Counted from the stretch's first letter, positions 1,715 through 62,785 are shown. The stretch is DNA of 64,000 nt from Pseudomonadota bacterium (GCA_022574295.1 JACZSJ010000001.1:786-64785), one strand, 5' to 3'. Numbers and translations are program-made. The notes: generated from the letters alone by a model not told the origin.

Positions 1715-1774
1715 GCGACGCCAGGAAATTCGATCCTAAACAATGCAACTTTAGACAATTCAACTCTGGTCAAT

Positions 1775-2584: not shown

Positions 2585-2635
2585 ATATGCGGTGCACAAA
2601 CCGGTGATTAACCATTGTGATAATTATAGGGTGTT

Positions 2636-3789: not shown

Positions 3790-3866
<77 letters not shown>

Positions 3867-29752: not shown

Positions 29753-30571
29753 ATAGCTATGTAACTGAAATAATGATCTTTGAAGATTGTAACACTATAC
29801 GTTCACACTTTAGTTGGATGCATTATCTTAATGACAGAGACAAACAGGATTGGATAAAGTTCATGACTGCACTCAAAATCTATGTTGGTCTTGATGTATA
29901 TTTGGATTGAATCTTATTGTTTAACAAAATCAACTAACATATTAATAATCAAGGGAGTTAATGGCACTAATTTAGATTAAATTTTTAATGTTTTTAAGCA
30001 GTAAATACAATCGCCGCTATGCAAGGCTAGGTCATGCATTATCGCCTTGAGTCAGAAACTTGCGTATTGTGTGACAATTGCCTAGAATCCATACGCTTAT
30101 GTTGGATGTTTAAAGCAGATGAGGATATTGCTGCGCCGCATCATCAAAAGGGTATGCCTAGTTGGTGACGATGGCGGAAGTGGTATACAATAAGGCCTCA
30201 CTGTAGTCGGGTAAGTTGATAATCAGGGACGGACTTATTCGCATGGCGTAGTGTTTCCATCGAAGTGCAGGAACGTACTAAAGTTCAAACACGTACAATT
30301 TGGGAAATATTGTAATTTTGAAATATGAATTTTTTATAACGCGCAGCTATGAAATGCCAAATAACGAAATAAAATATGTGGCAACGACAAAATCTTATCT
30401 CAACTGTCTGCACAGTACGTGTGCCACGGCTGCCATCTCGCACGCCAACATTCATGCAAATAAACATTCTTTATTACAGTCCTTTGATGTCTTATGATCT
30501 CGAGATATCAGGGGATTTCCTATATGTACTTTGAGATCGCACATGATCAACTAATATAAGAGGAGGAGGTC

Positions 30572-32473
30572 ATGAGTAAAATATCTTTTAAATCAGTGGT
30601 AATCGCTGCGATCGCTCTGGTGGTGCCTGTAGTTGCGTCTGCGAATGATGAAGTTCGCAGCCTCATACAGAACCCTAACTATTGGGCGTTTCCTAGTGGT
30701 AACTACGACGGTCACCGATATACTGCGTTGAAGCAAATCAATAACAAGAATGTCGGTAAGTTACAAGTTGCGTGGACATTTTCTACAGGTGTTCTGCGTG
30801 GTCACGAAGGCGGTCCTCTGGTTCTGCCTGGTTCTGCAACTGGTCTGCCTGGTGATACGCTGTACATCCATGCTGCTTTCCCGAACAATACGTTTGCGAT
30901 TGATCTGGATACACTGCAAATCCTCTGGCATTTTGAACCACAGCAGGATTTCGACGTAACTGTTCCTGTGATGTGCTGTGACACGGTCAACCGTGGTCTT
31001 GGTTACTCAATGGGTCAGATTTATCTGCAGCAAGCTGACACCGTATTGGTGGCTCTAGATGCTAAAACAGGTAAAGTCAACTGGTCAGTTCAACAGGGTG
31101 GCGATATCTCGGCTGCCTTGGGTGGTCCTTACGGTCCTGAATCAGGTATGACCAATACCAACGCACCACATCCTATTAAAGACAAAGTCTTTACGGGTTG
31201 TTCTGGTGCTGAGTTTGGTGTCCGTTGCTGGATGGCCGCTTACAATGCAAAAGACGGTAGTCTGGCATGGCGTGCTTTCAGCATGGGCCCTGACGCAGAC
31301 ATGATGTTCGATGCAAACACAACCTCTCTGGGCAAGAAAGTTGGTAAGGATTCCAGCCTGAAGACCTGGAAGGGTGATCAGTGGAAGCAAGGCGGTGGTT
31401 CTGCTTGGGGTTATTGGCCTGCTGATTTCGACGAAAACCTGATGTACTACGGTACTGGTAATCCAGGGACCTGGAATCCGGTAGTTCGTCCTGGCGACAA
31501 TAAATGGTCTATGACTATGTTTGCTCGTGATATCGACACTGGTGTTGCACGTTGGGTCTATCAGATGACGCCTCATGATGAGTGGGACTATGATGGCGTT
31601 AATGAAATGATCCTGGCTGACTTCAAAGTTAAAGGCAAAATGACAAAAGCACTGGTTCATTTTGACCGTAATGGCTTTGCATATACCATGGACCGTATAA
31701 CAGGTGCTCTGTTAGTTGCTGAGAAATATGATCCAGCAGTGAACTGGGCAACAGGTATTGATATGAAAACAGGTCTGCCACAACGTGTTGCTAAATACAG
31801 TACACACGGTAACGGTGAAGACGTCGTTTCTAAAGACATCTGTCCTTCAGCTCTGGGCACCAAGGATCAACAGCCTGCTGCTTACTCACCACAGACAGGT
31901 CTTTTCTATGTACCTACCAACCACGTATGTATGACCTACGAACCAGTTAGCTATGCTGCTGGGGGTAACAAGTATGTTTCAGGTCAGGCTTTCGTGAATG
32001 CAAACTTAACCATGTATCCTGCTGGTGCTGTATGTCCGGATTGCCCGAACAACAACGCAGCAAAAGACAACATGGGTAACATGCTTGCATGGGATGCGAG
32101 CACAGGTAAGATTGTATGGAACATCGTTGAGCAGTATTCAGTTTGGTCAGGTGTACTCGCAACCGCAGGTGGCGTAGTGTTCTACGGTAACCTCGAAGGT
32201 TGGGCTAAAGCTGTCGATGCCAAGAGCGGCAAACTTCTCTGGAAGTTTAAAACTCCTTCAGGCATCATCGGTAGCTTCAATAGCTGGGCATACAAAGGCA
32301 AGCAGTATGTCGGTGTCTTATCAGGTATTGGTGGTTGGGCTGGCGCAGTTGTTGCTATCCCAGGTTTAGCCGCAGCTCCTGACACAGCAGCACTTGGTGC
32401 TGTTGGTGGTTACAGGAGTCTGTTGCAGCACTCACGTGCTGGTGGTGTTTTGATGGTGTTCGCACTGCCATAA
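30572..32473 (+). CDS. xoxF: PQQ-dependent methanol dehydrogenase, XoxF-type (lanthanide-type DYD motif)
   Basis: 633 aa with a signal peptide, the vicinal disulfide PVMCCD, and the tryptophan-docking repeats typical of the 8-bladed PQQ propeller. The motif W-D-Y-D-G (nt about 31583-31597) has Asp where MxaF-type enzymes have Ala. XoxJ-like and SoxYZ-like partners are adjacent. Confidence 0.8.
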
Positions 32474-32506
32474 GTAAGTAGCACGTAACAAACTAAGTAG
32501 TATTAA

Positions 32507-32539
32507 AGCCCTGACCTTTTATAAGGTCGGGGCTTTTTT
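32507..32539 (+). terminator. Rho-independent terminator after xoxF
   Basis: AGCCCTGACC-ttttataa-GGTCGGGGCT hairpin followed by TTTTTT. Confidence 0.75.
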
Positions 32540-32890
32540 AATCAGTATGTGGTATGTGGTCCCTCTTGCTGAGGGAGTGTGGAAATCTAATGAATCACAA
32601 AATCCTGGAAAGTTCCGTAATATGGTAAAAAACTTTGCCTTGTTCACCAGGTCATAGTGGGTGTACCCGCTAAATGATATCTTTCGCATGCATTTATTTG
32701 GACTTAAGCGCTTTGAATAGAGTTTATTAATTATATATTAGGGATTGAATTTACAGAGTAAATCCATCAATATTAAACAATGTGCCCATGCCAAATGGTC
32801 CTGTGCAGTCGACAGCTAGAAAGTCTGCATATGGCGATGGTGGTACACAATCGTTTTAAATAGTACGAAGCCTCACTGGAGAAGGTTAAG

Positions 32891-33313
32891 ATGAAAATAA
32901 TGAAAATTGCTTTAATATCTGCTGCTTTATCAGTATTACTCGTATCTTTCAACGCAGCTGCAGAAGAACATTTGGTTGTCTCTGGCGCGACCAACTTTAT
33001 TCCCATGCATCTTTTTATTAAACCTGGGGATACTGTCAAATGGACAAACATGACCATCCATAATAGTGAATCTATGGAGGGTCTGATCCCGAAAGGTGCA
33101 GAACCATGGAAATCCAACATTGGTCAGGAATTGGCCGTGACCCTGGATGTCGAAGGTGTTTATATCTATAAGTGCTTTCCTCACTTTGCTAACGGCATGG
33201 TGGCAGCCATCATTGTTGGCGAAGCAAATAATATGAATCAACTTGATAATAATGCCAAAGGCAGGGAGAAGGGCGTCATCTTTAAGCTGAAGAAGAAACT
33301 TGCAGCAAAATAA
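32891..33313 (+). CDS. Pseudoazurin-family blue copper protein (cupredoxin)
   Basis: Signal peptide. Type-1 copper ligand pattern H..C-F-P-H-x(4)-M (YKCFPHFANGMV), as in pseudoazurin. Confidence 0.7.
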   Translation: MKIMKIALISAALSVLLVSFNAAAEEHLVVSGATNFIPMHLFIKPGDTVKWTNMTIHNSESMEGLIPKGAEPWKSNIGQELAVTLDVEGVYIYKCFPHFANGMVAAIIVGEANNMNQLDNNAKGREKGVIFKLKKKLAAK

Positions 33314-33334
33314 GATCCAGTAACGGCCCATAAA

Positions 33335-34237
33335 ATGATTAACTTCAATAAAGATGCTCAACGATCAGGGCGAAAGTATTTTGTCCTGATTACAATGCTG
33401 ATCCTCGGTTTTACCAGTAACATTGCGATTGCAGAAGATTCTAAATACAAGGAACGACCTGTTCTGAAAGTGTGTGCAGATCCTCAGTTGATGCCATTTT
33501 CTAATAAAAACGAAGAAGGCCTGGAAAACAAGATTGCTGAGTTATTAGCCAAAGAACTCGGGGCCGAACTCAAATATGTATGGTTTCCACAGCGAATGGG
33601 GTTTATTCGTAATACGCTTCGTTCTGAAGAAAATGGTATTTTCAAATGTGATCTGGTTTTGAGTGTGCCGGAACACTTTGAACTGGCCGCTACAACCAAG
33701 CCATATTACGCTTCAACTTATGCATTAGTGTACGTTAAGGGAAGAGGGTTAGACAGTGTTACGGAGCCGGATATGCTTGAGACACTGAACGATGAGAGAC
33801 AAGATATTAAAATTGGTCTGTTTGATCGTGGCCCGGCGCAACTCTGGGTTTTTCAGCGTAATCTGATGGATAATATGGTCCCGTATCAATTACAGCTGGG
33901 TGATGCCAGGAAGAACCCAACTGAAATTATCTTGAGTGATCTGCTTGATGGAAAGTTCGATGCGACCATTGTTTGGGGTCCGACGGCAGCATATTTTGCC
34001 ACACAGAACAAAGATAAAGGTGAATTGGTGATACTACCGTTAAAGGATGATCTAAAATTACCGGAAATGAAATTTGTATACAATATGTCGATGGCTGTCA
34101 GGCATGCTGATAAGGAATGGAAAGAACAATTAAATGGATTGATTGATAAATATCAGGAAGATATCAATGCTATTATCAGCAGCTATGGTATCCCTATCGT
34201 TGAAGTAATACCAAAGCCAGCATTAGATGATGATTAG
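33335..34237 (+). CDS. xoxJ: Quinoprotein dehydrogenase-associated periplasmic binding protein (MxaJ/XoxJ family)
   Basis: Signal peptide followed by PVLKVCADPQLMPFSN, matching the LRVCADPxNLPFS signature of MxaJ/XoxJ. About 300 aa. Confidence 0.7.
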   Translation: MINFNKDAQRSGRKYFVLITMLILGFTSNIAIAEDSKYKERPVLKVCADPQLMPFSNKNEEGLENKIAELLAKELGAELKYVWFPQRMGFIRNTLRSEENGIFKCDLVLSVPEHFELAATTKPYYASTYALVYVKGRGLDSVTEPDMLETLNDERQDIKIGLFDRGPAQLWVFQRNLMDNMVPYQLQLGDARKNPTEIILSDLLDGKFDATIVWGPTAAYFATQNKDKGELVILPLKDDLKLPEMKFVYNMSMAVRHADKEWKEQLNGLIDKYQEDINAIISSYGIPIVEVIPKPALDDD

Positions 34238-35080: not shown

Positions 35081-35113
35081 AAAGGGTGGTATCTGATGAT
35101 ACCACCCTTTTTG
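35081..35113. terminator. Bidirectional rho-independent terminator
   Basis: AAAGGGTGGTATCTGATGATACCACCCTTTTTG lying between convergent genes. Confidence 0.8.
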
Positions 35114-35184: not shown

Positions 35185-37980
35185 TCAGGCTGTTTGTTTT
35201 TTGCGACTAATTGTATCTTGATCACGACCCCCCGATGTTAATTTTACAGCACAGAATTTAAACTCAGGAATTTTAGCGAAAGGATCCAATGCATCATTGG
35301 ATATTAAGTTAGCAGCAGCTTCACTGAAAGTGAAAGGCATCATGACGACGCCTTTTTGCATATGCTCATCAGCACGTGTCGTCGCTGCAATTCTTCCACG
35401 TCTTGATTCAATCACCAGAATATCACCTGTCTTCATATTAAAGTCCTTCAAATCTTCAGGATTGATCATGATGCATGGACCAGGTTCGATTGCATCCAGA
35501 ACCCGACAGTGGCGTGTCATCGTGCCAGTATGCCAGTGTTCTAATTGACGGCCTGTTGTAAAAATAAACGGGTAGTCTTTGTCGGGTAATTCGGCCGGCT
35601 CTATATGTTCAGCAGGTATAAAACGGCCTCTGCCATCGTCGGTCGGAAATATACCATCTTTAAATATCACTGGTTCACCAGCATCACCTTCATTTTCAAG
35701 CGGGTAGGTTAATGAATCTTCCTGCTCAAGTCGTTCCCACGTCATTCCCGCCATACTGGGGACTGCTTTACGAATTTCTTCAAAGACGTCTTCAGGGCCA
35801 TCATAGCTCCAGTCCAGGCCAATTCGGTTTGCTAGCTCCTGAATGATCCACAAATCCTGGCGTGCATCTCCTGGTGGATCGATTGCCTGACGTCCCATTT
35901 GTACACGCCGATCAGTATTTGTGAATGTACCGGTTTTTTCAGGGAAGGCAGAAGCTGGTAAAATCACGTCGGCGTAACTACATGTCTCAGTAAAGAAAAT
36001 ATCCTGTATAACCAGATGATCCAACTTTGATAAGGCCTCGCGGGCATGATGCAGGTTGGGATCGGACATAGCTGGATTTTCTCCCATAATATAGAGTCCA
36101 TTCAGGTCTCCACCATGAATTGCATGCATGATCTCAACAATAGTCTTGCCGATATTTGGATCGAGTTTCTTGCCCCAGAGTTTTTCAAATTTTGCCCTTA
36201 CATTCGGGTCAGTAACGGGTTGGTAATCCGGATAAACCATGGGGATTACGCCTACATCAGAGGTCCCTTGCACGTTGTTTTGTCCGCGTAGTGGATGTAA
36301 ACCGGTGCTGGGTCTGCCGATTTGACCGGTCATCAGCGCAAGTGATATCAGGCAGCGAGCATTATCAGTTCCATGTATATGTTGGGATATACCCATTCCC
36401 CAGAAAATGATAGCCGTTTTAGCTTTTGCATAAAGTCGAGCGACAGTTTTGATTGTCTCTGCAGGGATATAACAAATTGGTGCTACTTTTTCCGGGCTGT
36501 AATCTTTAATGACTTTCTTTAACGCTTCAAAACCATCGGTGTGGTCTTTTATAAATGCATCGTTTTGCAGGCCTTCTTCAATGATGGTGTGCATCATTGC
36601 ATTGAGTAATAGGACATCAGTTCCCGGTTTAAGTTGCAGCAAGTGTTCTGCATGAAGATACATCTCAGAGCCATACGGTTCGATCAGAACTAATTTACTG
36701 CCGCGATCAATGGCATTCTTCATGAAGGTCGCTGCGACCGGATGGTTATCGTTTGGTCGTGCACCGATGACAATCATGACTTCAGCGCCAACACCGTCAG
36801 CGACCTGATTCGATACGGCAGCTGAACCTATCGTTTCTAATAGCGCGACAACCGAAGAAGCATGACAAAGTCGGGTACAATGATCGACATTATTGGTACC
36901 AAAACCGGTACGTACCAGTTTTTGCACTAAATAAGCTTCCTCATTACTTCCTTTAGCACAACCAAAACCGGCAAGTGCCTGTGGACCTTTATTATCTCTA
37001 ATTTCTTTAAGACCGTGTGCAGCGAAATCAAGCGCTTCTTCCCAGCTTGTTTCCCTGAAATATTTGTGCATTTCAAGCGGGTCGATTAGATCTGGAGTTT
37101 TTATTGCATCTTCGCGACGGATAAAAGGTTTGGTTAAACGATCAATATGATGCACATAATCAAAACCGTAACGTCCCTTTACACAGAGACGACTTTTATT
37201 AGCAGGTCCATCCCGTCCATCAACAGATAGAATGTGATTATTTTTAACATTGTAGGTTAATTGACAGCCAACGCCACAATAAGGGCAGACTGACTCAACT
37301 TTTTTATCCGGTTCTATCAATCCAACATTCCTTGCTGGCATAAGCGCACCAGTCGGACAGGCTTGTACACATTCACCACACGCGACACAGGTGCTCTCTC
37401 CCATCTCTTCGTCCATATCAAATACAATTTTGGCGTGGCTGCCTCGAAACGCCATACCAATTACATCATTGACCTGTTCTTCACGACAGGCCCGAATACA
37501 GCGAGTGCATTGGATACAGGCATCCAGGTTAACGGAAATAGCCGAATGGGATAGATCGGCTTTAGGTTGTTTACGTTGATGAAAACGCGGGTCGTAAATT
37601 TCGAACTTATTGGCCCAGTAGTCAAGTTCCGAGTTTAATGTATAGGGCGATTTTCCCTGTTGAGGCATATCCGAGAGTAATAACTCCAGTACCATCTTTT
37701 GTGAATGGATAGCTCGTTCATTCTCACTGTTAACTTTCATGTCTTCAGTGGGCTGACGACAGCATGATGGTGCCAGAACTCTTTCGCCCTCAATCTCAAC
37801 CATGCATACTCGGCAATTCCCATCAGAGCGATAGCCTTCCTTGTAACAAAGATGAGGAATTTCAATATCGTTGCGTTTGGCCGCCTGAAGTATGGTTTCA
37901 TCGCCATAGGCTACGATATCCTCTCCATTCAGGTTGAAGGTGACAGCTTTTTCATTCATAACTTTTGGATTTGCAGCCAT
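35185..37980 (-). CDS. fdsA: NAD-dependent formate dehydrogenase alpha subunit (molybdopterin/tungstopterin; FdsA/Fdh1A-like)
   Basis: 931 aa. The N-terminus carries NuoG-like 2Fe-2S and 4Fe-4S cysteine clusters. The Mo-bisPGD domain has an active-site-like LCHASS motif (Cys-His). Confidence 0.85.
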   Translation of the reverse strand: MAANPKVMNEKAVTFNLNGEDIVAYGDETILQAAKRNDIEIPHLCYKEGYRSDGNCRVCMVEIEGERVLAPSCCRQPTEDMKVNSENERAIHSQKMVLELLLSDMPQQGKSPYTLNSELDYWANKFEIYDPRFHQRKQPKADLSHSAISVNLDACIQCTRCIRACREEQVNDVIGMAFRGSHAKIVFDMDEEMGESTCVACGECVQACPTGALMPARNVGLIEPDKKVESVCPYCGVGCQLTYNVKNNHILSVDGRDGPANKSRLCVKGRYGFDYVHHIDRLTKPFIRREDAIKTPDLIDPLEMHKYFRETSWEEALDFAAHGLKEIRDNKGPQALAGFGCAKGSNEEAYLVQKLVRTGFGTNNVDHCTRLCHASSVVALLETIGSAAVSNQVADGVGAEVMIVIGARPNDNHPVAATFMKNAIDRGSKLVLIEPYGSEMYLHAEHLLQLKPGTDVLLLNAMMHTIIEEGLQNDAFIKDHTDGFEALKKVIKDYSPEKVAPICYIPAETIKTVARLYAKAKTAIIFWGMGISQHIHGTDNARCLISLALMTGQIGRPSTGLHPLRGQNNVQGTSDVGVIPMVYPDYQPVTDPNVRAKFEKLWGKKLDPNIGKTIVEIMHAIHGGDLNGLYIMGENPAMSDPNLHHAREALSKLDHLVIQDIFFTETCSYADVILPASAFPEKTGTFTNTDRRVQMGRQAIDPPGDARQDLWIIQELANRIGLDWSYDGPEDVFEEIRKAVPSMAGMTWERLEQEDSLTYPLENEGDAGEPVIFKDGIFPTDDGRGRFIPAEHIEPAELPDKDYPFIFTTGRQLEHWHTGTMTRHCRVLDAIEPGPCIMINPEDLKDFNMKTGDILVIESRRGRIAATTRADEHMQKGVVMMPFTFSEAAANLISNDALDPFAKIPEFKFCAVKLTSGGRDQDTISRKKQTA

Positions 37981-39641
37981 TATTCAAATTCCTCAGGAAA
38001 ATATTTTATTGCACAACGTAATGGGTTCGGGGCTGCCTGACCCAGGCCACAAATAGAGGCATCTTCCATTGCCCGTGCCAGTTCTTCTAATAAGGACTGA
38101 TCCCAATATTTTTCTTCCATCAACTTAACTGCTTTTTCAGTTCCTACCCGACAAGGCGTGCATTGCCCACAGGACTCATCTTCGAAAAATCGCATTGCAT
38201 TTAACGCCATATTTTTAACGCTGTCTTTATCTGATAGTACGACAATCGCGGCTGAGCCAATAAAACAACCATGTTCCTGTAATGTATCAAAGTCGAGTGG
38301 AACGTCACCTAAAGAGGCAGGGAGTATCCCGCCAGATGCGCCACCAGGGAAATAGCCATAAAATTTATGACCATCCAGCATACCGTCACAGTATTCTTCA
38401 ATCAATTCACGTATTGTAATGCCTGCTGGTGCAAGATATACACCGGGTTTATTAATTCGACCACTGACAGAAAATGATCTTAATCCACTTCGTTCATGAC
38501 GGCCTTCAGATGAAAACCATTCCGGACCCTTTTCGATGATGTCCCGAACCCAATGCATTGATTCCATATTTTGTTCTAATGTCGGTCGCCCAAACAGACC
38601 GACCTGAGCAACATAAGGGGGACGTAGGCGTGGTAGCCCACGTTTGCCCTCGATGGATTCGATCATAGCGGACTCTTCGCCACATATATAAGCACCTGCA
38701 CCGCGACGCAAATGGATATTGGGTAATGGGCAGGGGGGATCTTGCTTTAATGCGGACAGTTCCTTTTCCAATGCTTTTCTGCAGCCTGCATATTCATCCC
38801 TCAAATAGATATATATATCCTCAGCTTCGATTGCCCAATGCGCTATTAATGTCCCTTCAATAAATCGATGAGGATCCCGTTCGAGGTAATATCGATCCTT
38901 GAATGTTCCCGGTTCTCCTTCATCAATGTTAATAGCAATTAGTCGAGGCTTGGATTGTTGACGTAAAATGCGCCACTTTTGCCCTGTTGGAAAGCCTGCA
39001 CCACCGAGTCCACGGAGTTTCGAATCTTCCAGTATTTTAATGATCTCTTCTCGATCGTGTTTTCCATTAACACAATCAATCAGCGTTTGATAACCACCAG
39101 ATTTTCGATAGCTGGCATAGTCAATATACTCTGGCATTGCTGCGTCAAACTCTCTCCTATTTACAGCATTGTCTATTTTCCCCTGGTTGGCATGCTCAAT
39201 TGGGTTTGTGCCAACAACGGCAACAGGGGCTGTATCACACCGACCGATACATGGCACAGCTTGAATTCTGACATCATCTTTATATTTGGCTTCTAGCTGA
39301 TTAATGAGCTCTTTAGCGCCAAACATCTCGCAAGTGAGTGATTCACATACCCGGATGGTTAGTGTTGGCGGAGGTGGCTCATTTTCGTTTAACACGTCAA
39401 AGTGATGATAAAACGTGGCCGTTTCATAGATTTCAGCCATTGGTAGGCTCATGTCTATGGCGAGTGCAAGAATATGACGATTTGAAATATGGTGATAGTG
39501 ATCCTGTATTTTATGGAGATTCTCAATCAACATATCGCGCGTGCGGGGCGCATCACCTAGAAGCTGCCGAACTTCTGCTAAAGATTTATGGGGTGTAGTA
39601 CGACCTTGAACACGACCTTTTTTCCCACGTGTACGTTTCAT
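37980..39641 (-). CDS. fdsB: NAD-dependent formate dehydrogenase beta subunit (NuoE-like plus NuoF-like fusion; FdsB/Fdh1B-like)
   Basis: 553 aa with an N-terminal thioredoxin-like 2Fe-2S domain and the NuoF flavin/NADH motifs (GLGGAGFPTGQKW, ESCGQCTPCR). Confidence 0.85.
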   Translation of the reverse strand: MKRTRGKKGRVQGRTTPHKSLAEVRQLLGDAPRTRDMLIENLHKIQDHYHHISNRHILALAIDMSLPMAEIYETATFYHHFDVLNENEPPPPTLTIRVCESLTCEMFGAKELINQLEAKYKDDVRIQAVPCIGRCDTAPVAVVGTNPIEHANQGKIDNAVNRREFDAAMPEYIDYASYRKSGGYQTLIDCVNGKHDREEIIKILEDSKLRGLGGAGFPTGQKWRILRQQSKPRLIAINIDEGEPGTFKDRYYLERDPHRFIEGTLIAHWAIEAEDIYIYLRDEYAGCRKALEKELSALKQDPPCPLPNIHLRRGAGAYICGEESAMIESIEGKRGLPRLRPPYVAQVGLFGRPTLEQNMESMHWVRDIIEKGPEWFSSEGRHERSGLRSFSVSGRINKPGVYLAPAGITIRELIEEYCDGMLDGHKFYGYFPGGASGGILPASLGDVPLDFDTLQEHGCFIGSAAIVVLSDKDSVKNMALNAMRFFEDESCGQCTPCRVGTEKAVKLMEEKYWDQSLLEELARAMEDASICGLGQAAPNPLRCAIKYFPEEFE

Positions 39642-40477
39642 GCTACTTTTTTGAGGTTGAGTGTTTGTAAGATCAGGATTTCTCCCTTTCCATTACGTGC
39701 CAAATCACCTGAAAAACGATGTGCTTCTGGTCCAAATTTATTGAAAATTGAAAATTCTTTACCCATATTCGAGAGTTGTGTAAACAGCAAGCGTAAAAAC
39801 TGTATTTTTAAATTTCCGTTGCTTTTAAATGTAGCGGTGATATGAGCGGGTTTCTTCGCCAGAATGATTGTCCCGCGTCGCATCCCAGCACCTGGGTTCT
39901 TTCCAGCTTTATCAAGGACAATAATTGTTCCTGCATGCATGCGGCTACCACAAAAATCACCTGCCTTACCATATATAATAATCATGCCGCTACGCATTCT
40001 GTCGCCGACACGATCCCCGGCAGAACCAGATATTTTGATCATGCCATCAGTCATGCCAAATGTATCACCAGGTTTGCCAGCACCGATATGATCACCAGCA
40101 TTGCCATTAATATCAATGCGACCACCAGACATATTGTTTCCGACCCATGACCCCGCGTTTCCGTTAATTGTAATAATGCCTCCTTGTAAATATGAGCCAA
40201 GAATTTTACCAACATCGCCATTCACATTGATTGATCCATAGGACATTTTTCTACCGACTGACACGAGCTTTTCACAACTACGATTGATCTGAATATTTTT
40301 AGAATCTGACCCAGTCACATTGAAGAGTGTGTCCAATACCACCTTGTTTTTACCATAAGGCAGCTTCAGGGATTTAATTTTAGTTTTGTTCAAACCAGCA
40401 AGATTATCGGGCGTTAATTGAGCAACATCCAAAGTAAACTTTGGTCGAATCTTTAATGTAAAGGTTAACGGATTCAT
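39638..40477 (-). CDS. fhcC: Formylmethanofuran dehydrogenase subunit C homolog (Fhc complex subunit C)
   Basis: Gly-rich beta-helix repeats (INGNAG..IDINGNAG), as in FwdC. 4-nt overlaps with the neighbouring genes. Confidence 0.8.
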   Translation of the reverse strand: MNPLTFTLKIRPKFTLDVAQLTPDNLAGLNKTKIKSLKLPYGKNKVVLDTLFNVTGSDSKNIQINRSCEKLVSVGRKMSYGSINVNGDVGKILGSYLQGGIITINGNAGSWVGNNMSGGRIDINGNAGDHIGAGKPGDTFGMTDGMIKISGSAGDRVGDRMRSGMIIIYGKAGDFCGSRMHAGTIIVLDKAGKNPGAGMRRGTIILAKKPAHITATFKSNGNLKIQFLRLLFTQLSNMGKEFSIFNKFGPEAHRFSGDLARNGKGEILILQTLNLKKVA

Positions 40478-41370
40478 TTCATTATCTTCCTGAGATGAAA
40501 ATGATACGGCCCCAAATCACCGCCATAATTACCAGCACTGATGCGGCATATGCCTTTTTTTGGGCCATACGAGCAGACTGCTTTAATACCAACACGCATT
40601 GCTTCGTTGATTGATTCTTCATCAAGACCATCAATAACAATTTCCAGAACAGAGCCGATCTCATCAGTCAGTTCTGAATCAACCTGTCCTTTTAATGTAG
40701 GACAATAAGCCTCATTGGTTGATGCCGGAAGAAAATCATATTTCGATCCGACTTTTGAACCTGATCCAACAATCCCCCCCGGGAAAGCAGTAATGACACC
40801 TGGAACTTTTTGAATTTCTTCAACTGCCTTTTCACAAGCCGATAAAGCATGGCGTGTGGTTTTTGCCAGCACAAGAAAGTTTCCGCCGCCTACAGCTTTG
40901 GTAGAGCCAGTAGTATCTTCACAAATGAATTCACCATGCATAACGGGGATGCGCCAAAATCTTCGGCTGTTGATTTTTTTTGATATTTGATAGCCATCAC
41001 CAAAATAACGCAGGCTTTTGCCCATGGGAATTTGATGACCATCACGAATGCCAGCGTAACAGGCTGCTGTTGCTGTAGTCATCACAGATTGGCCTACACG
41101 CATCGGGATTTGTTTTTCCAGGTCTTTCATAGACATTGCGAATATCAGTAGTGATATCCCAGGTCGACCATCAGGTGTCTCTGAAGGTGACAACTCTTTT
41201 TCAATATCTGCTTCACAACCGCAAGCGATAACCGATGAAGCAAATCCTCTGAGTGCGTTTGCTGCTCTGTATGCCCATTTTAAATTCATTGCTGTAATAA
41301 TAATGCGCGTGGCTTTCATAGGGAAAGCCTCTGCAAAAGTATCATCAATATATACGCCGTTTATTTTCAT
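40474..41370 (-). CDS. fhcD: Formylmethanofuran--tetrahydromethanopterin N-formyltransferase (Ftr; FhcD)
   Basis: 298-aa Ftr family protein (MKINGVYIDDTFAEAFPMKATRIIITA). Confidence 0.85.
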   Translation of the reverse strand: MKINGVYIDDTFAEAFPMKATRIIITAMNLKWAYRAANALRGFASSVIACGCEADIEKELSPSETPDGRPGISLLIFAMSMKDLEKQIPMRVGQSVMTTATAACYAGIRDGHQIPMGKSLRYFGDGYQISKKINSRRFWRIPVMHGEFICEDTTGSTKAVGGGNFLVLAKTTRHALSACEKAVEEIQKVPGVITAFPGGIVGSGSKVGSKYDFLPASTNEAYCPTLKGQVDSELTDEIGSVLEIVIDGLDEESINEAMRVGIKAVCSYGPKKGICRISAGNYGGDLGPYHFHLRKIMK

Positions 41371-41376
41371 TATATT

Positions 41377-43032
41377 TTATGTACAAGGTTGTACGATGAT
41401 GTTGCCATTACCATGTTCAACGATTTCATCATCATCGATCTTGAAATTACCTAGTTTAACGGTCATATAACGGTCAAAATATTTTTTTAATGATTTTTCA
41501 ATACTCTTGTCATAATCAGGTCTTAGGGTATGAGTACCACCAGTGACTACCTTGACAATTTTGCCGTTTTTGACAATTTCTTCTCCGTTCTTAAAGACAT
41601 ACAGTGGTTTTTCAAACATTTTTTCTTTATTCTTTATATTGTTATACACAGTAATATCTGCAATGGCACCACCGCCCAGGTGGCCTCTGTTTTTTAATCC
41701 TAAACTGCGAGCTGGTGCCGCACGTGTCATGGTCGCGATTTCATAAAGTGTGTATTCGCGGTCAATACTACTTAATATACTTGCAGCAGCAGCACCTTTG
41801 TTGATTGTCGCCAGCATGTCATTTCTGAAACTACGATCCATTAGCAATCGGATTAAATGGGGATAGCTTGTAAATGGTGCACCATTTGGATGATCGGTTG
41901 TCAGGAAAATTCGCCATGGGTCATTGATTAATAAAAAGAGTTCAAGGCCGATTGCCCATTGCAAGGCATTAACAAAATTCTTGTCTCGATATTTAAATGG
42001 GACAACACCACAGCCCGCATCACATTCAATATCCATGATCACCCACTTTTTCGGGTGAGCATGCCAGTGACCTGCATATTGACGCATAGTATCACCTGAT
42101 GCAGTAACGGTTTGTCCAAACAATACCTGACCTACATCGATAGAAATATTCGGATTTGAGTTTACAGCTTCAGCAATTTCCGCAGCCCCTGATGAAAACT
42201 TTCGGTCACCTTCAGTACCATAACTATGAAATTGGACATGGGTTAAATGTAATGGCATACCTTCAACTGCACGTATAGTATCTAATGTTGTGTGCATATT
42301 GCCTGGAACACCGAGATTACAACCATGTAAATGCAGAGGGTGGGGGACACCTAACTCGCGAACTGCACGTGCAAGTGATTTTATGATCTCACGAGGGGAG
42401 ACACCATAATGTTCATTCTGTTCATCCAGATCTAACTTACGTTGATTAAATTTAAAGGCATTGATGCCGCCAGGGTTTACAACTTTAATCGCTATTGCCT
42501 GTGTAGCATTGATTATCCAGCCCACGTAATCACTAATAGCTTCACGATCTTTTTTCGCAGTTAGCATACGCAGGAAAAAGTCATCACTACCCAACATGGC
42601 ATAGGCGCCTTTATCAACCATTGGTGTATCTGCCATTTCCATGTGTGCCTGACGTGCATTTGAAGGTAGCATGGCAGGTTCAAAACAGGCCGTATAACCC
42701 ATTTCCGCATATCGATATCCTGCAGTAAGTGTTGATGGTGCAGCATGGCCACACCCTGAACGTGTCAGTTTTGTTTTACTTACAAGGTCTGCCCGATGAT
42801 CTTCGGGCAACATCATACGTGCAATATTTACCTTGCCACCACCAATATGAGTGTGGATATCAATTGCACCAGCCATAATTATTTTGCCATTAAGATCATA
42901 TGTCTTATCAATCTTTATTGAAGAGGCAGGTTTTCTCGTGATGTAGCCATCCTGTAGATAAATATCTCTCTTTTCACCATTAATACCATGCACAGGATCG
43001 TAGACAGTGCCACCAGATAATTTAATTAACAT
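41377..43032 (-). CDS. fhcA: Formylmethanofuran dehydrogenase subunit A homolog (amidohydrolase; FhcA)
   Basis: 551-aa FwdA-like amidohydrolase with a metal-binding HxH motif (DIHTHIGG). Confidence 0.85.
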   Translation of the reverse strand: MLIKLSGGTVYDPVHGINGEKRDIYLQDGYITRKPASSIKIDKTYDLNGKIIMAGAIDIHTHIGGGKVNIARMMLPEDHRADLVSKTKLTRSGCGHAAPSTLTAGYRYAEMGYTACFEPAMLPSNARQAHMEMADTPMVDKGAYAMLGSDDFFLRMLTAKKDREAISDYVGWIINATQAIAIKVVNPGGINAFKFNQRKLDLDEQNEHYGVSPREIIKSLARAVRELGVPHPLHLHGCNLGVPGNMHTTLDTIRAVEGMPLHLTHVQFHSYGTEGDRKFSSGAAEIAEAVNSNPNISIDVGQVLFGQTVTASGDTMRQYAGHWHAHPKKWVIMDIECDAGCGVVPFKYRDKNFVNALQWAIGLELFLLINDPWRIFLTTDHPNGAPFTSYPHLIRLLMDRSFRNDMLATINKGAAAASILSSIDREYTLYEIATMTRAAPARSLGLKNRGHLGGGAIADITVYNNIKNKEKMFEKPLYVFKNGEEIVKNGKIVKVVTGGTHTLRPDYDKSIEKSLKKYFDRYMTVKLGNFKIDDDEIVEHGNGNIIVQPCT

Positions 43033-43046
43033 AATTCAATGATTCC

Positions 43047-44318
43047 CTAAATCAATTCAATAATGCGATTTAATATGTCGCTAACACTCATATATTTTGA
43101 ATCGCGTAATTTTTTTAGAGGGAGTGAAACAACGTTATCTGTTCGGATTAATTGGCCCGAATGATCAATGCCAGGTGTCGCAACAGGGATAAACACATCA
43201 GGTTTAAAATCCAGTTTTGCCTCAGGGGTGGCAAGTACAACGGTTGGTATCTTCGCTTTTGGCGGCCTTGTATTTGAACTAAAGCTGGAAATCCACATCA
43301 ATGCATCAACTTCTTTATTTTTCAGTAAACTTTTGGTTGAATTTCTACCGACATCGTGTCTTGGAAAACCTTTACTAAAATTTACACGTAATGGAAAGCC
43401 ACTTTGCCATGCACTTACATTATTTGCACTCATTGCTCCATCAGCACCAGCCAGGGTAAATCCGGCAAAACGCGTCGTTCTGGTCAGATATTTAACCAAT
43501 TCACAAATACTTTGAATGGTTAATTCGGCATGTGGAAAATTTAATTCGCCAGGTGCCCAGACAATAACACCGTATTTTGCTTCTTGCATTTGTTTGGCGA
43601 GTTTCAGTAATGTTGCAAGACTAATTCCTGCAATTTTTGGTGTCTGTATTATGTTGCCAGCAATGATGGCATGCAAAACCGAAATTATTTCATTGATTTC
43701 TTCCTGTTCACACTTTAATACCGTAGGTAATTTTCCTTCGGGGCTTCTTCCTGTTGAAGTTTTCAACTTATCACCTATATAAACAATCTTCCTTTTTTTT
43801 ATATTTCTGAATAATGAGTTTTTATTCCATATGACACGCTCGAAAAAGCGTGGATAATTTGATGCGTCAGTTCCCGCAAAGATAATAAAATCTGCCCGGT
43901 TTTTTATTTCTGCCATGGTCGTCATCACCCAGCCAAGGTCTTGTAATACCAGTGTGTTTCTGATCACACCATCACTATGCATATGATCGATCGTCGCACC
44001 TATATTATCGGCAAGATGCATAACAGAACGCATGCCTCCAATATCTGTGCCCAATCCAGCAATTAATGGTGCAGATGATTGTTTCAGGATTGTGGCTGCA
44101 GCCTTAATAGCCTTATCGATAGAGCAGGATTTACCTTTCAGAGCGGGGGTACTATCAGGCAGTGGTTGTGCGAAATGCGCTTTCACTTTGGCGCAGCCAT
44201 TCTCTTTCACTGTTAATTTGCTGTCCTTGTTCTGAATGACTAAATCATCACAGATAAGACTGCAAAATGGACAAGGAACTTCATTCAGCACAATTGTCTG
44301 ATGTGTTTTTGTTTTCAT
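43047..44318 (-). CDS. fhcB: Formylmethanofuran dehydrogenase subunit B homolog lacking the active-site Cys (FhcB)
   Basis: Has the N-terminal Fe-S Cys motif (CPFCSLICDD). At the position aligned to the catalytic Cys-His it has IDHMHSDG, so no Cys. This is consistent with the non-redox Fhc hydrolase complex. Confidence 0.75.
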   Translation of the reverse strand: MKTKTHQTIVLNEVPCPFCSLICDDLVIQNKDSKLTVKENGCAKVKAHFAQPLPDSTPALKGKSCSIDKAIKAAATILKQSSAPLIAGLGTDIGGMRSVMHLADNIGATIDHMHSDGVIRNTLVLQDLGWVMTTMAEIKNRADFIIFAGTDASNYPRFFERVIWNKNSLFRNIKKRKIVYIGDKLKTSTGRSPEGKLPTVLKCEQEEINEIISVLHAIIAGNIIQTPKIAGISLATLLKLAKQMQEAKYGVIVWAPGELNFPHAELTIQSICELVKYLTRTTRFAGFTLAGADGAMSANNVSAWQSGFPLRVNFSKGFPRHDVGRNSTKSLLKNKEVDALMWISSFSSNTRPPKAKIPTVVLATPEAKLDFKPDVFIPVATPGIDHSGQLIRTDNVVSLPLKKLRDSKYMSVSDILNRIIELI

Positions 44319-44330
44319 AGCGAAAGTAAT

Positions 44331-44368
44331 TACTGACTTAAAATTATTGTACTGACTTAAAATTATTA
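44331..44368. repeat. 19-bp tandem direct repeat in the fhcB leader
   Basis: TACTGACTTAAAATTATTG repeated twice, back to back, 13-51 nt upstream of the fhcB start codon. Confidence 0.7.
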
Positions 44369-44608
44369 ATGGCTAAGATACAGCCATTCCAGGTATTTTC
44401 CTGCAATCGTTCAACTAGTCTAGAAAATTAAGGTCCCGAAGGGATAGAGGTATGCGTAACTCATTGTATTTATTATGTATTTAAACAGATCTGCCACCAT
44501 CAATTTCATAGATGGCAATAATATACACTATTAGAAACAATCTGTAAGCTGGTAATTATGCCGGATATTTTTGCAATTTCTGCATTATATAAGGAATAAA
44601 TTTCTTGC

Positions 44609-46000
44609 CTAATTCAGTAGTTCCAGCATTTCTTTGACGTAGGTTATTTTTTCTCGTGGTTTACCCTTCGCTTGACCACGCTCGACTTCAGTGGCATCAA
44701 TTGATTTCCATTCCTGATAATTTATATACCTCACATTTCGTGAATCCAGTAGCGAATAAAGCGTTTCAGCCCCAGCTTTCTGGTCACCCGAATCAAGTGT
44801 ATCGAGATCGGCGAGAAGAGAATTTACCGTTGCAACACTGCAGGCACGATTTGTGCCGATGATGCCGCTGGGGCCTCGTTTGATCCAGCCGGCAGTATAG
44901 AACTGTGGCACTATTTCGTCATTCTCCGTGATGCGGCCATCGTCGTTTGGAAAAACACCCCAGCCGTCATGAAAAGGGACGCCTTGCATTGGAATACCAC
45001 GATAGCCAATGCTGCGAAACAGGATACCGGTTTCCAGTTCATAGAATTTACCTGAGCCCCGTGCAGATTGCTTAAAAGGGTCACCTGAAAGTTGATTGTG
45101 TTCGATCCTGACTCTCTCCAGTTTTGAGTCTCCTAATAATTCAACCGGACTCCTGAGAAACTGGAAATGGCATCGACGTGCCTTCCTTGATGATGCCGGG
45201 CCCGATATAGCCCGGGATGAATATTTCTGGAATAAGTCATAAATCTTTTTACTGCCGATATTCGATTTTTCTTCCAGTTCTATATGACTGGCTTTATTCA
45301 ATTCCAGTTCTGTTGAGTCAACAACCGCATCGCAATGTTCTAGTTCACCAAATTCGCGCAGTTCTTTCGGTGTAAATTTGGCTTGTGCAGGACCACGTCG
45401 GCCGATGACATAAATATCTTTAATCTTGCTTTCTGCTAGTACATCCAGCGCGTGTTCGGCGATATCGGTATGTTTCAATTCATCAACTGTCTTGGACAGG
45501 ATTCGGGCAACATCGGCGGCGACATTGCCCTGGCCGATAATCACAGCAACTTCATTGGATAAATCGAATTGTCGATCACGATAATCAGGATGACCGTTAT
45601 ACCAGGCAACAAATTCAGTTGCTGTATAACTACCAGCCAGATCTTCACCGGGGATACCCAATCTACGGTCTGATTCTGCACCACAGGTAAATATAATTGC
45701 ATGGTGGGAATCGCGCAGTTCGTCAACGCTAATGTCCTTGCCCACCGTGATATTGGCAATCAGATTAAATTCAGGTGATTGTGCTATTTTATCGTAAAGT
45801 AAGATCGCCTGTTTTAGTTTTGGATGATCAGGTGCGACGCCACTTCTCACCAGGCCATAAGGGGAAGGGAGACGTTCCAGCATATCAACCTTGATATCAA
45901 TATCAGATTTAATAAGTGCTTCTGCCGCATAAAATCCACTTGGGCCGCTGCCAACGATGGCAACACGCAAGGGATTTTGTTCACTGCCGAGTTGAGCCAT
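44609..46000 (-). CDS. fprA: FprA-type NADPH:ferredoxin (adrenodoxin-reductase-like) oxidoreductase
   Basis: 463 aa with N-terminal VAIVGSGPSGFYAA..MLERLPSPYGLVRSGVAPDHPK, matching the FprA / adrenodoxin reductase / GltD family. Confidence 0.75.
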   Translation of the reverse strand: MAQLGSEQNPLRVAIVGSGPSGFYAAEALIKSDIDIKVDMLERLPSPYGLVRSGVAPDHPKLKQAILLYDKIAQSPEFNLIANITVGKDISVDELRDSHHAIIFTCGAESDRRLGIPGEDLAGSYTATEFVAWYNGHPDYRDRQFDLSNEVAVIIGQGNVAADVARILSKTVDELKHTDIAEHALDVLAESKIKDIYVIGRRGPAQAKFTPKELREFGELEHCDAVVDSTELELNKASHIELEEKSNIGSKKIYDLFQKYSSRAISGPASSRKARRCHFQFLRSPVELLGDSKLERVRIEHNQLSGDPFKQSARGSGKFYELETGILFRSIGYRGIPMQGVPFHDGWGVFPNDDGRITENDEIVPQFYTAGWIKRGPSGIIGTNRACSVATVNSLLADLDTLDSGDQKAGAETLYSLLDSRNVRYINYQEWKSIDATEVERGQAKGKPREKITYVKEMLELLN

Positions 46001-46060
46001 TAAAAATATCTCCCACTGGGAATTATGTAATAAAATTATGCAATGATTATTAACGAATCA

Positions 46061-46369
46061 TTAGAAACCAAGTTCCGTCTTACGTTCCTCAGCGCCCGGT
46101 AATGGATCCATTTGCTCATCACAAACAGGGAGATCAGGTGCTCGTTCAGCATTAATGGCAATCCATTCTTCCTTGCCTTCAGCAACAATATCATCATCCT
46201 CAAAGATTGCTTGTACAGGGCATTCAGGGATACAGGCACTGCAATCAATGCATACATCAGGATCGATATACAACATTTCATCATCAAAATGAAAACAGGC
46301 GACAGGACAGACAGTGACACAATCTGTGAAACGACAGGATTTACAATTATCAGTTACTATAGTTGTCAT
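46061..46369 (-). CDS. fdxA: 7Fe ferredoxin ([3Fe-4S][4Fe-4S], FdxA type)
   Basis: 102 aa with CKSCRFTDCVTVCPV and CIDCSACIPECP motifs. Immediately upstream of fprA on the same strand. Confidence 0.85.
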   Translation of the reverse strand: MTTIVTDNCKSCRFTDCVTVCPVACFHFDDEMLYIDPDVCIDCSACIPECPVQAIFEDDDIVAEGKEEWIAINAERAPDLPVCDEQMDPLPGAEERKTELGF

Positions 46370-46413
46370 AATATTGACCTCCCCAAAGGTTTTAGGCCCC
46401 TTTAATAAAAGAG

Positions 46414-47226
46414 TTACTCGTTTGCGTATAAAAGAATTTCACCTTTGTTTAATTCGATGGCATCACCAATCCAGCGTTTGTAGTTGCCATTTATTTGTTC
46501 ATCAGAGACTTCCATGCCGAGTTTTCTGATATAAGATAAATACATTCGTAAGTAGGTCGGATTATAGGTACAGACATAACTAAATGTTGGAATCATTGGT
46601 GCATGATGCATTGATATTATGGTTCCTCGCTTCATGCTGGCACCATTACGGATCCCCATTTCGCCAAGTACAATAATTGTTCCGGCAAGCATATTAACAC
46701 CGGTAAAGTCACCCGTGTTTCCACCAATAGCAATCAACCCACCACGCATTGTATTGCCCGTCTCATTTTTTACGTCGCCATGAATAATTATTTCACCACC
46801 TTGCATGCCGATGGGGCTGCCTCGATAGGCGCTACCAATTAAATGTCCAGCATTACCTTTGATAGTAATCTTGCCTCCCGTCATTTCCGGGGCAACCCAG
46901 TCATGCGCATTGCCTTCAACAACGATCTCGCCACCACTCATGCAGGCGCCCAGATGTTGGCCAACATCACCTTCGATGATCATCTTGCCAATCGTCATTT
47001 CAGAACCAAGGTGTTTAACATTGGCTAAATCACCTTCGAGTTGTATTTCACCATCACATTGCCCCTTCACGGTAAAAAAATCTCCAAGTGCCGTTTGGTC
47101 ATTACCATGGAAAACAGTCAAGGCCGCGATTGCAGTTTCATTCACACCATTTAATTTATCGGGACAGATAACATCTGCCTCGAGTGGTACGTCAGGTTTT
47201 GTATGTAATGAAAGTTTTAAACTCAT
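46414..47226 (-). CDS. fwdC: Formylmethanofuran dehydrogenase subunit C (second copy)
   Basis: 270 aa with Gly-rich repeats (IVVEGNAHD..ITIKGNAG..IIIHGDV). 4-nt overlap with ftr. Confidence 0.8.
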   Translation of the reverse strand: MSLKLSLHTKPDVPLEADVICPDKLNGVNETAIAALTVFHGNDQTALGDFFTVKGQCDGEIQLEGDLANVKHLGSEMTIGKMIIEGDVGQHLGACMSGGEIVVEGNAHDWVAPEMTGGKITIKGNAGHLIGSAYRGSPIGMQGGEIIIHGDVKNETGNTMRGGLIAIGGNTGDFTGVNMLAGTIIVLGEMGIRNGASMKRGTIISMHHAPMIPTFSYVCTYNPTYLRMYLSYIRKLGMEVSDEQINGNYKRWIGDAIELNKGEILLYANE

Positions 47227-48134
47227 GACTGGTTGCTTGCTTCCCTTGCTTCCAGAATTTTATTCAAATGCAGATGGTATTGGCCTAAATTGCCCCCATA
47301 ATTACCCGCAGATAATTGCTTGATACCTGGTTTTGCAGCGGCATGTAAACCAACATGCATCGCCTCAGCAACAGCTTCTTCGCTCAAGCCATCAATCACA
47401 ATTTCCAGTACACAATTGACACCTTCTGGCACCAGTGATTCGCTGGACACGGTACGCAGAGTCGGGCAATAAGCATCATTGCTTGATGCAATGAGTGCTT
47501 TATATTTTGAACCGACCTTACTACCACTGCGTACAACGCCATTCGGGAAAGGCAGAATGACCCCGTCAATTTCTCGCATGGCTTTTGTTGCTGCCGTTGC
47601 TGCTCTCAATGTAGTTTTTTGATCTTTACCTAAAATCAGAATATTGCCACCACCGACGGCATCCTGGATACCGAAGCGTTCATCAACGACAAATTCGCCA
47701 TCCATCACCGGGATACGCCATAGCCGTTGTTTCCCCAATACCTTGCTGCTTTGATGGCCATCACCGAAGTAACGTAATTGTCCACCAACAATGGCTGTTG
47801 TGTCAGATTCAAGACCATTAAAGCAAGCCGTTGTTGGGCAGGTCATGACACATTGGCCAACACGTTCCATCAGGCGCTTTCCCAATCCATCGGCATCCAT
47901 TGCAAAAATCAGGACGCTGATGCCGGGCCTGTTATCCGGTGTCTCATCCGCTGATAATTCTTTTTCTATGCCTGCTTCGCATTTACATCCAATCACCGAG
48001 GTGGCAAAGCCAGTGATGGATTGTGCTGCTGCCATTGCCCATTGTTTTGATTCAGCCGTGATAATGATCCGACTGCCACTCATTTTGAATGCTTCAGCAA
48101 AGGTATCAACGATTTCGGTAGACTTGATTTTCAT
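47223..48134 (-). CDS. ftr: Formylmethanofuran--tetrahydromethanopterin N-formyltransferase (second copy)
   Basis: Ftr family (MKIKSTEIVDTFAEAFKMSGSRIIITA). Start trimmed to the internal Met, giving about 303 aa. Confidence 0.85.
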   Translation of the reverse strand: MKIKSTEIVDTFAEAFKMSGSRIIITAESKQWAMAAAQSITGFATSVIGCKCEAGIEKELSADETPDNRPGISVLIFAMDADGLGKRLMERVGQCVMTCPTTACFNGLESDTTAIVGGQLRYFGDGHQSSKVLGKQRLWRIPVMDGEFVVDERFGIQDAVGGGNILILGKDQKTTLRAATAATKAMREIDGVILPFPNGVVRSGSKVGSKYKALIASSNDAYCPTLRTVSSESLVPEGVNCVLEIVIDGLSEEAVAEAMHVGLHAAAKPGIKQLSAGNYGGNLGQYHLHLNKILEAREASNQS

Positions 48135-48147
48135 CAGTATTCGCCAG

Positions 48148-49788: not shown

Positions 49789-49878
49789 TTCTCTCCCTTA
49801 TTTTATGCTTGTTCTTCTTTTATTGTTCTACAGGTTAATATTATTTTTCTTACTTTATCTTTTTCATGCAACCCTGGT

Positions 49879-51228: not shown

Positions 51229-51257
51229 TACTATTCTGGCCTCATGTATCAGAATTT

Positions 51258-62783: not shown

Positions 62784-62785
62784 TC

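Follow-up and report, generated by a model that had tools for sequence, protein, structure and literature searches.

Gene array and its layout

The window analysed here is a stretch of 64,000 nucleotides (nt) from a Pseudomonadota bacterium (GCA_022574295.1, JACZSJ010000001.1:786-64785), with positions counted from its first letter. On its minus strand, the list of open reading frames (ORFs) and the read-out of their junctions give six co-directional genes, running from 44318 to 35185 in the order fhcB-fhcA-fhcD-fhcC-fdh1B-fdh1A. The first four encode the subunits of an Fhc complex, which produces formate from formyl-tetrahydromethanopterin (formyl-H4MPT), and the last two encode an NAD-linked formate dehydrogenase (FDH). 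The corresponding protein records are MCH8845142-47. The six genes are:

43047-44318, minus strand: fhcB, FwdB-like subunit, predicted to be non-catalytic; TIGR03129, 334.8 bits against a cut-off of 327.8
41377-43032, minus strand: fhcA, formyl-methylofuran hydrolase (amidohydrolase); TIGR03121, 783 bits
40474-41370, minus strand: fhcD, formylmethanofuran:H4MPT formyltransferase (Ftr); Pfam FTR and FTR_C; NF002554, 452.8 bits over the full length (1-297)
39638-40477, minus strand: fhcC, GXGXG beta-helix scaffold subunit; PF01493; TIGR03122, 252 bits; start overlapping the fhcD stop by 4 nt
37980-39641, minus strand: fdh1B, FDH1 beta subunit, a NuoE-NuoF fusion; 722 bits to 7e5z_B; start overlapping the fhcC stop by 4 nt
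35185-37980, minus strand: fdh1A, FDH1 alpha subunit; TIGR01591, 768 bits; 1207 bits to 7vw6_A; start overlapping the fdh1B stop by 1 nt

From 5' to 3', the spacings between consecutive genes are +14, +6, -4 (ATGA), -4 (ATGA) and -1 (TAATG) nt, and the run through fhcD, fhcC, fdh1B and fdh1A contains no intergenic DNA at all. The start codons are credible, because homologues have the same annotated lengths (553-556 residues for the beta subunit, 277-279 for FhcC and 931 for the alpha subunit) and because profile and solved-chain alignments of the array proteins begin at residues 1-12. A preliminary description of this stretch had given the same co-directional order, the same coordinates and overlaps of 4, 4 and 1 nt, all of which prove exact. 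Its six gene identities are upheld by Pfam, NCBIfam and alignments with solved structures, the family name "fds" for the last two genes aside.

Conservation among uncultured relatives

An alignment of FhcB homologues (A1) was scanned against one genome per GTDB species. This yielded 536 relatives, of which the best 80 loci (numbered with the prefix L) were kept and mapped for synteny by tblastn. Downstream sequence is sufficient in 64 of them, and in 54 of these fdh1B lies directly downstream of fhcC, so that the comparison of gene order proposed in the preliminary description bears out the adjacency. The linkage is found in 47 of 47 loci with an FhcB at least 48% identical to that of the window and can be seen down to 45% FhcB identity. 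The closest GTDB species has an FhcB 86% identical. Spacing between fhcC and fdh1B in the linked loci is mostly -29 to +44 nt, rising to 253-439 nt in 11 species; the window and its closest relatives keep it at zero to four nt. An identical beta subunit occurs in the same array on at least 22 independent metagenome contigs. Since these contigs are independent and 54 of the 64 informative loci carry the array, it is neither a chance arrangement nor an assembly artefact.

Some 39 species share a larger, 13-gene array, in which a set of genes upstream in the window (fwdD-B-A-ftr-C-fdx-fprA, described below) precedes fhcB-A-D-C-fdh1B-A. Nearly all are metagenome-assembled genomes (MAGs) labelled Gammaproteobacteria or "Thiotrichaceae" UBA4486, UBA973 and UBA7359. 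In a neighbour-joining tree of FhcA, linked loci fall into one large gammaproteobacterial group with a few unlinked lineages nested in it, while the outgroups, lineages of Alpha- and Betaproteobacteria, Thiodictyon and Methylophilaceae, are unlinked. This topology fits one early fusion of fhc and fdh1, followed by later losses. At one locus from a complete-chromosome MAG (L035, 14654-16537), the fdh1BA sequence that follows fhcC is scattered over several frames, with fdh1A cut short, which means either that the FDH pair is decaying or that long reads introduced frameshift errors.

In the cultured methylotrophs examined, fhcBADC and fdh1BA are separate units. In the annotated records of Ca. Thiodictyon syntrophicum, Azoarcus sp. 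KH32C and Azospirillum oryzae, unrelated genes come after fhcBADC, and a stand-alone fdh1B-fdh1A pair is found in Methylobacterium radiotolerans, where it adjoins mobB/glp, and in Azospirillum thermophilum. In A. lipoferum 4B, both sets lie on one replicon, about 177 kb apart. The preliminary description had called the layout unusual relative to model methylotrophs; this stands against the cultured organisms examined, but within the uncultured clade the layout is the rule. No published description of an fhc-fdh operon was found in the open-access full-text literature, and fhcBADC-fdh1BA is a real, conserved operon variant of well-known enzymes that is apparently undescribed.

The Fhc subunits

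By Pfam and NCBIfam, the Fhc set is complete: A is the amidohydrolase, B the FwdB-like subunit, C the GXGXG beta-helix and D the Ftr. Known Fhc complexes release free formate from formyl-H4MPT and use bound methylofuran as a swinging arm. The complex of Methylorubrum extorquens (FhcABCD, 6S6Y; fhcBADC, Mext_1824-1827) has the same four subunits encoded in the same B-A-D-C order (PMC6926001). Its FhcA is the best solved relative of the FhcA in the window (6s6y_A, 437 bits), and all six metal ligands are conserved (H57, H59, the carboxy-lysine K176, H229, H258 and D377). The array differs from the M. extorquens operon in that it does not end at fhcC but continues, via overlapping codons, into fdh1BA.

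FhcB can be aligned with archaeal FwdB (5t5i_B, 143 bits) along its entire length. At the positions of the catalytic residues Cys118, His119 and Arg288 it has Gly, Val and Ala, respectively, and the loss of these three is common to the 24 homologues in alignment A1. A FwdD-like ORF (Molydop_binding) was searched for in the ORF list and with Pfam within the array, 35185-44318, and none was found. Given the lost residues and the missing FwdD partner, FhcB is predicted to be a non-catalytic scaffold, as in Fhc; M. extorquens Fhc likewise has neither the three residues nor a FwdD. In another respect the two differ: M. extorquens FhcB has 361 residues and has lost the N-terminal Fe-S domain (PMC6926001), whereas the array FhcB has 423 and keeps the domain, with a CxxCxxxC...C motif (C16, C19, C23 and C42) that is invariant in alignment A1.

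This four-cysteine, [4Fe-4S]-type motif, encoded at 44193-44273 (FhcB residues 16-42), is kept despite the loss of the pterin active-site residues. Of the 80 related loci, 79 have it, among them Methylophilaceae loci without a linked FDH; the remaining one, L054, is cut off by the end of its contig. We asked whether it points to electronic coupling with FDH1 and discarded it as specific evidence, because it is equally present where no FDH adjoins. The motif, putatively cluster-binding, reads as a trait of the beta- and gammaproteobacterial lineage and gives no ground for excluding the protein from Fhc.

Archaeal FwdABCDFG (5T5I) resembles the array in that formyl-(M)FR (the formyl-furan cofactor) is taken through formate to CO2 by the products of one gene array, and its A, B and C subunits are homologous to those encoded here. 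However, the redox site formed by FwdB and FwdD is dead or absent in the array, where a separate NAD-linked FDH would take over the redox step, and the array includes Ftr.

The formate dehydrogenase pair

Fdh1B is a single 553-residue fusion of NuoE and NuoF with 2Fe-2S, flavin mononucleotide (FMN)/NADH and 4Fe-4S sites. Pfam finds 2Fe-2S_thioredx, Complex1_51K, SLBB and NADH_4Fe-4S in it, with domains at residues 26-161, 205-365 and 478-553, and the alignment with the beta subunit of the M. extorquens tungsten FDH (7e5z_B) spans residues 12-552. The preliminary description had likened this fusion to the tungsten-containing FDH1 of Methylobacterium, and the two are close orthologues. Fdh1A contains Fer2_4, Fer4, Molybdop_Fe4S4, Molybdopterin and Molydop_binding. 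The motifs HCTRLCHASS and RGQNNVQG, which hold the active-site Cys-His pair and the conserved arginine, are conserved with respect to 7vw6_A, the stretches LCHASS and RGQNNVQG being identical in the two proteins; the active-site residue is cysteine, not selenocysteine.

As in FDH1 of M. extorquens AM1 (7VW6, 7E5Z), there are two subunits, a fused NuoE-NuoF beta and an alpha with N-terminal Fe-S domains and a Cys-His site. The beta-then-alpha gene order is shared with M. radiotolerans and Azospirillum. The alpha subunit in the window is about 57 residues shorter at its N-terminus than that of M. extorquens, and its gene pair is appended to fhcBADC, whereas FDH1 in the cultured hosts examined is a stand-alone pair. 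Fds, the FdsGBACD enzyme of Cupriavidus necator and Rhodobacter capsulatus (6TG9, 6VW7), is also an NAD-linked FDH, with a molybdenum bis-pyranopterin guanine dinucleotide (Mo-bisPGD) cofactor and a NuoEFG-like electron path. Its matches are weaker (567 bits to 6tg9_A for alpha, 251 bits to 6vw7_B for beta), and it has a separate NuoE-like gamma subunit as well as FdsC and FdsD. In the window, by contrast, NuoE and NuoF are fused and fdsC and fdsD are absent after fdh1A, which is followed by a hairpin and then a convergent gene. The names fdsB and fdsA used in the preliminary description point to the wrong family, because there is no separate gamma subunit, no fdsC and no fdsD, and we replace them with fdh1B and fdh1A. 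Judged by these alignments, the pair has its close orthologues in the tungsten FDH1 of M. extorquens (KEGG fdwB/fdwA type) and not in Fds, a comparison that does not tell tungsten from molybdenum. The genes tup, moeA1 and mobB were looked for in the window and none was found.

Transcription and translation signals

Four features around the array bear on its expression:

35081-35110, minus strand: terminator-like perfect 13-bp hairpin, about 75 nt past the fdh1A stop, between convergent genes
44319-44608, minus strand: fprA-fhcB spacer of 290 nt, putatively the promoter and leader region of fhc-fdh1
44520-44548, minus strand: promoter-like CTTACA-17-TATATT, a 9/12 consensus match in the best-conserved block of the spacer
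44331-44345 and 44350-44364, minus strand: direct repeat just 5' of the fhcB ATG, formed by two identical copies of AATTTTAAGTCAGTA at a 19-nt interval

The hairpin has a folding free energy of -21.8 kcal/mol (z = -7.2; as stable in none of 200 shuffles). In a sliding-window minimum-free-energy scan of 34.9-52 kb, it is the only strong intergenic hairpin on the minus strand, and no strong hairpin with a U-rich tail appears inside the array. Nothing significant folds at the fhcC/fdh1B junction (z = 0.18). A consensus scan across the region found 34 sigma-70-like promoter matches, which is below the 40.8 expected from shuffles. The idea of an internal terminator or promoter in the array was dropped, as neither type of scan gave anything above chance. 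This includes the interval between fhcC and the FDH genes, where the preliminary description had proposed to look for such signals.

The same description had suggested promoter mapping in 44319-44608, and a conserved promoter-like block is indeed predicted there, upstream of fhcB. All 43 loci that allow a measurement keep the spacer between fprA and fhcB, at 68-361 nt. Its block ...CTTACAGATTGTTTCTAATAGTGTATATT is conserved in L007-L009 (FhcB 79-86% identical), and more distant, UBA4486-like loci have a conserved TTGACA/TTGATA box at the equivalent position. Copies of AATTTTAAGTCAGTA occur nowhere else in the window; the proximal one is conserved in L007-L009, and the repeat is possibly an operator or a translation-initiation element. 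A riboswitch or leader upstream of fhcB, such as one for molybdenum or tungsten cofactor (Moco/Tuco), was considered and rejected, a permissive Rfam search of 44250-44680 returning chance-level matches only; at the gathering threshold, Rfam finds only a tRNA in the whole window. No Shine-Dalgarno sequence precedes fdh1B (free energy -0.4 kcal/mol), fhcB or fhcD.

Interpretation and alternative explanations

We consider it probable that fhcBADC-fdh1BA is one co-expressed chromosomal operon, whose products would take formyl-H4MPT through formate to CO2 and NADH in an uncultured methanol-oxidising gammaproteobacterium. A single transcript with translational coupling fits every test made on the sequence: there is no spacer and no internal hairpin, and promoter matches are at chance level. 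By homology, FhcD would transfer the formyl group from H4MPT to methylofuran (MYFR), and FhcA, with its conserved catalytic residues, would hydrolyse formyl-MYFR to formate, with FhcB and FhcC as scaffolds. The Fdh1AB heterodimer, with Mo/W-bisPGD, is expected from homology and its catalytic residues to oxidise formate to CO2 and to reduce NAD+ via its NuoE/NuoF-like beta subunit. Transcription would most likely run from the block around 44520 to the hairpin at 35081-35110, and coupled translation is likely in view of the ATGA and TAATG overlaps; the formate-making and formate-consuming enzymes would then be produced together.

Several observations weigh against this reading. The 80 loci were picked from the 536 FhcB relatives as the ones closest to the query, which biases the sample towards the linked clade. 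The absence of a Shine-Dalgarno sequence before fdh1B was weighed as proof of coupling and found not to be decisive, since neither fhcB nor fhcD has one. Within fhcC, two 9/12 promoter-like matches (40116-40088 and 40059-40032) leave room for an internal promoter. Finally, the loci with the wide spacing between fhcC and fdh1B form a sister subclade of 11 (L018, L020, L021, L023, L024, L026, L034, L038, L041, L048 and L050), with the spacer at, for instance, 14666-14928 in L018, 14665-14940 in L021 and 14641-15079 in L041. All these spacers but that of L048 share a TTGACT-17-CAATAT box. In the same ten loci, the hairpin UUGAUAGGAUUGGGAUGAUGUUCGUUUCUAUCAA is conserved, with compensatory changes in places, and so is AAACGAAUAUCAAUG at the fdh1B start codon. 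A known RNA family was rejected as an explanation, the spacers of L021 and L041 matching none in Rfam, and the element may be an undescribed leader controlling fdh1BA. Because of the spacer and its conserved promoter-like box, the FDH pair can apparently be an independent transcription unit in these relatives, a state that would have evolved there; the existence of this subclade also shows that the genes need not be physically contiguous. The spacer motif was sought in the window and is absent.

The closest rival would go beyond co-expression: Fhc and FDH1 would form a physical supercomplex, in effect an NAD+-reducing formyl-methylofuran dehydrogenase, with FDH1 recruited to replace the dead FwdB/FwdD site and formate channelled from FhcA/FhcB to Fdh1A without ever being free. 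The fhcC/fdh1B overlap and the tight linkage, conserved over deep divergence, are compatible with this, and the FhcB in the window, full length and with its four-cysteine domain, is more Fwd-like than that of M. extorquens. Archaeal Fwd does join both reactions in one complex through a formate tunnel, whereas the channel of M. extorquens Fhc opens to solvent and the formate it releases is oxidised by separate FDHs (PMC6926001). The four-cysteine motif, however, is as common in lineages without an adjacent FDH, the sister subclade tolerates its long spacer, with the promoter-like box in ten of 11 species, and neither Fdh1A nor Fdh1B shows an added docking domain when aligned along its full length with the free-standing M. 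extorquens enzyme. A Rosetta-stone fusion of FhcC and Fdh1B was also sought with a chimeric query spanning the junction; each of the best 120 matches covers one half only. As membership of an operon does not by itself imply a complex, we regard the supercomplex as unlikely. If it were true, the supercomplex and the adjoining intact Fwd-ferredoxin-FprA set would represent two stages of a transition from Fwd to Fhc within one genome.

It is still less probable that there are two transcription units, in which a promoter within fhcC would account for most fdh1BA expression and the overlaps would reflect compaction of the genome. Start/stop overlaps are indeed common in the window (for example 6475/6482, 13956/13963, 56096/56103 and 57031), fhcC contains the two weak matches, and the sister lineages evolved a spacer with a promoter-like box before fdh1B. 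On the other hand, such matches are no commoner than in shuffles, the spacing in the window and the relatives nearest to it stays at zero to four nt, fdh1B lacks its own Shine-Dalgarno sequence, and adjacency persists in the great majority of informative loci (54/64). The module might also run reductively, from CO2 through formate and formyl-MYFR to formyl-H4MPT, for the assimilation of CO2 or formate; passages in two papers describe M. extorquens FDH1 as a CO2-reducing enzyme (PMC13197769, PMC13396061). The methanol-oxidation context, with a XoxF-like dehydrogenase and fae, speaks against this direction. So does established thermodynamics, NADH being too weak a reductant for CO2 reduction and condensation. 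Hydrolysis of formyl-MYFR is, in addition, exergonic by about 23 kJ/mol (PMC6926001), and we find the reductive direction hardly credible.

The upstream Fwd set and the wider window

The set upstream of the putative operon occupies 44609-51614. The preliminary description had extended the co-directional run to 51614, and this longer set is real and conserved:

51258-51614, minus strand: fwdD
49879-51228, minus strand: fwdB
48148-49788, minus strand: fwdA
47223-48158, minus strand: ftr
46414-47226, minus strand: fwdC
46061-46369, minus strand: 7Fe ferredoxin
44609-46000, minus strand: fprA

The fwd, ferredoxin and fprA identities proposed earlier are likewise confirmed. FwdB (449 residues, about 400 bits to solved FwdB) retains SVCHGPS, RGH and the four-cysteine motif. 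FwdD, with 69 bits to 2ki8, starts at the ATG at 51614, behind GAGGA. FwdA groups with archaeal FwdA and not with FhcA, the 102-residue ferredoxin is of the Azotobacter 7Fe type (98 bits to A. vinelandii FdI), and FprA (463 residues) is a true FprA/adrenodoxin-reductase homologue (359 bits to 1lqt). Thus, a catalytic FwdB capped by FwdD, the hallmark of Fwd/Fmd, is found in this set and not in the fhc set, and the genuine Fwd-type enzyme of the organism is the one encoded upstream.

As paralogues, the fwd and fhc sets are 27-55% identical. A recent tandem duplication was rejected as their source, in view of this identity and because the first set goes with archaeal Fwd and the second with M. 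extorquens Fhc. On sequence grounds, the upstream set is a catalytically intact formyl-methanofuran dehydrogenase and an ancient paralogue of the fhc set. It would bring about the same overall oxidation, passing the electrons to ferredoxin and NADP+, which implies a ferredoxin/NADP-linked Fwd running parallel to Fhc and FDH1. The whole fwd-fdx-fprA set lies upstream of fhcB in 39 loci. Four others (L007, L028, L033 and L045) keep the Fwd set and the ferredoxin but have no fprA match, with a gap of 384-1264 nt between fdx and fhcB; because of these, the NADP link is not universal. According to a 2016 review (PMC5020050), Proteobacteria have no fwdD, a statement contradicted by the locus in the window and about 39 related species; bacterial FwdB homologues had already been noted in a 2023 survey (PMC10100899). 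Arguably, the upstream set is more notable than the fhc-fdh1 array.

The window is a methylotrophy island on a chromosomal backbone that carries housekeeping genes. Genes for beta-RFAP synthase, mch, an MptN-like protein, fae and MfnD/E/F-like proteins lie at 51.9-63.4 kb, the homologues of methylofuran biosynthesis (MfnD, MfnE and MfnF-like) at 59352-63400. The region 28865-34237 encodes a XoxF-like pyrroloquinoline quinone (PQQ) methanol/ethanol dehydrogenase (30572-32473), a pseudoazurin-like copper protein, a MoxJ-like binding protein and a "quinoprotein dehydrogenase-associated SoxYZ-like carrier". The clustering of the dehydrogenase with a pseudoazurin-like protein, and not with a cytochrome c-type partner, hints at an unusual electron acceptor. 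At 1124-3739, a complete AmmeMemoRadiSam three-gene system (A, B and the radical SAM enzyme) adjoins a tRNA-Met (3790-3866).

Implications for methylotrophy

In the textbook scheme for M. extorquens, formate made by Fhc enters a free pool and there branches, either into assimilation or into oxidation by FDHs whose genes lie apart. The hard-wired fhc-fdh1 operon suggests, instead, a commitment of formyl units to CO2 and NADH, as would suit energy-only methylotrophy. For UBA4486, Francis et al. described dissimilatory methylotrophy with no assimilation route identified (PMC8371827), and methanol seems to serve chiefly as an energy source in relatives of this lineage, so that formate could plausibly go straight to CO2. 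With no assimilation route, a free formate branch point would not be needed, and this could explain selection for the fusion.

The upstream set with its FwdD extends true formyl-methanofuran dehydrogenases into the Proteobacteria and points to a ferredoxin/NADP-linked variant. The fhc-fdh1 layout would offer a simple genomic marker for energy-only methylotrophy and a ready-made gene set for probing a possible interaction between Fhc and FDH1. The operon is conserved widely among uncultured methanol oxidisers of marine and groundwater habitats, a large group that is active in the environment.

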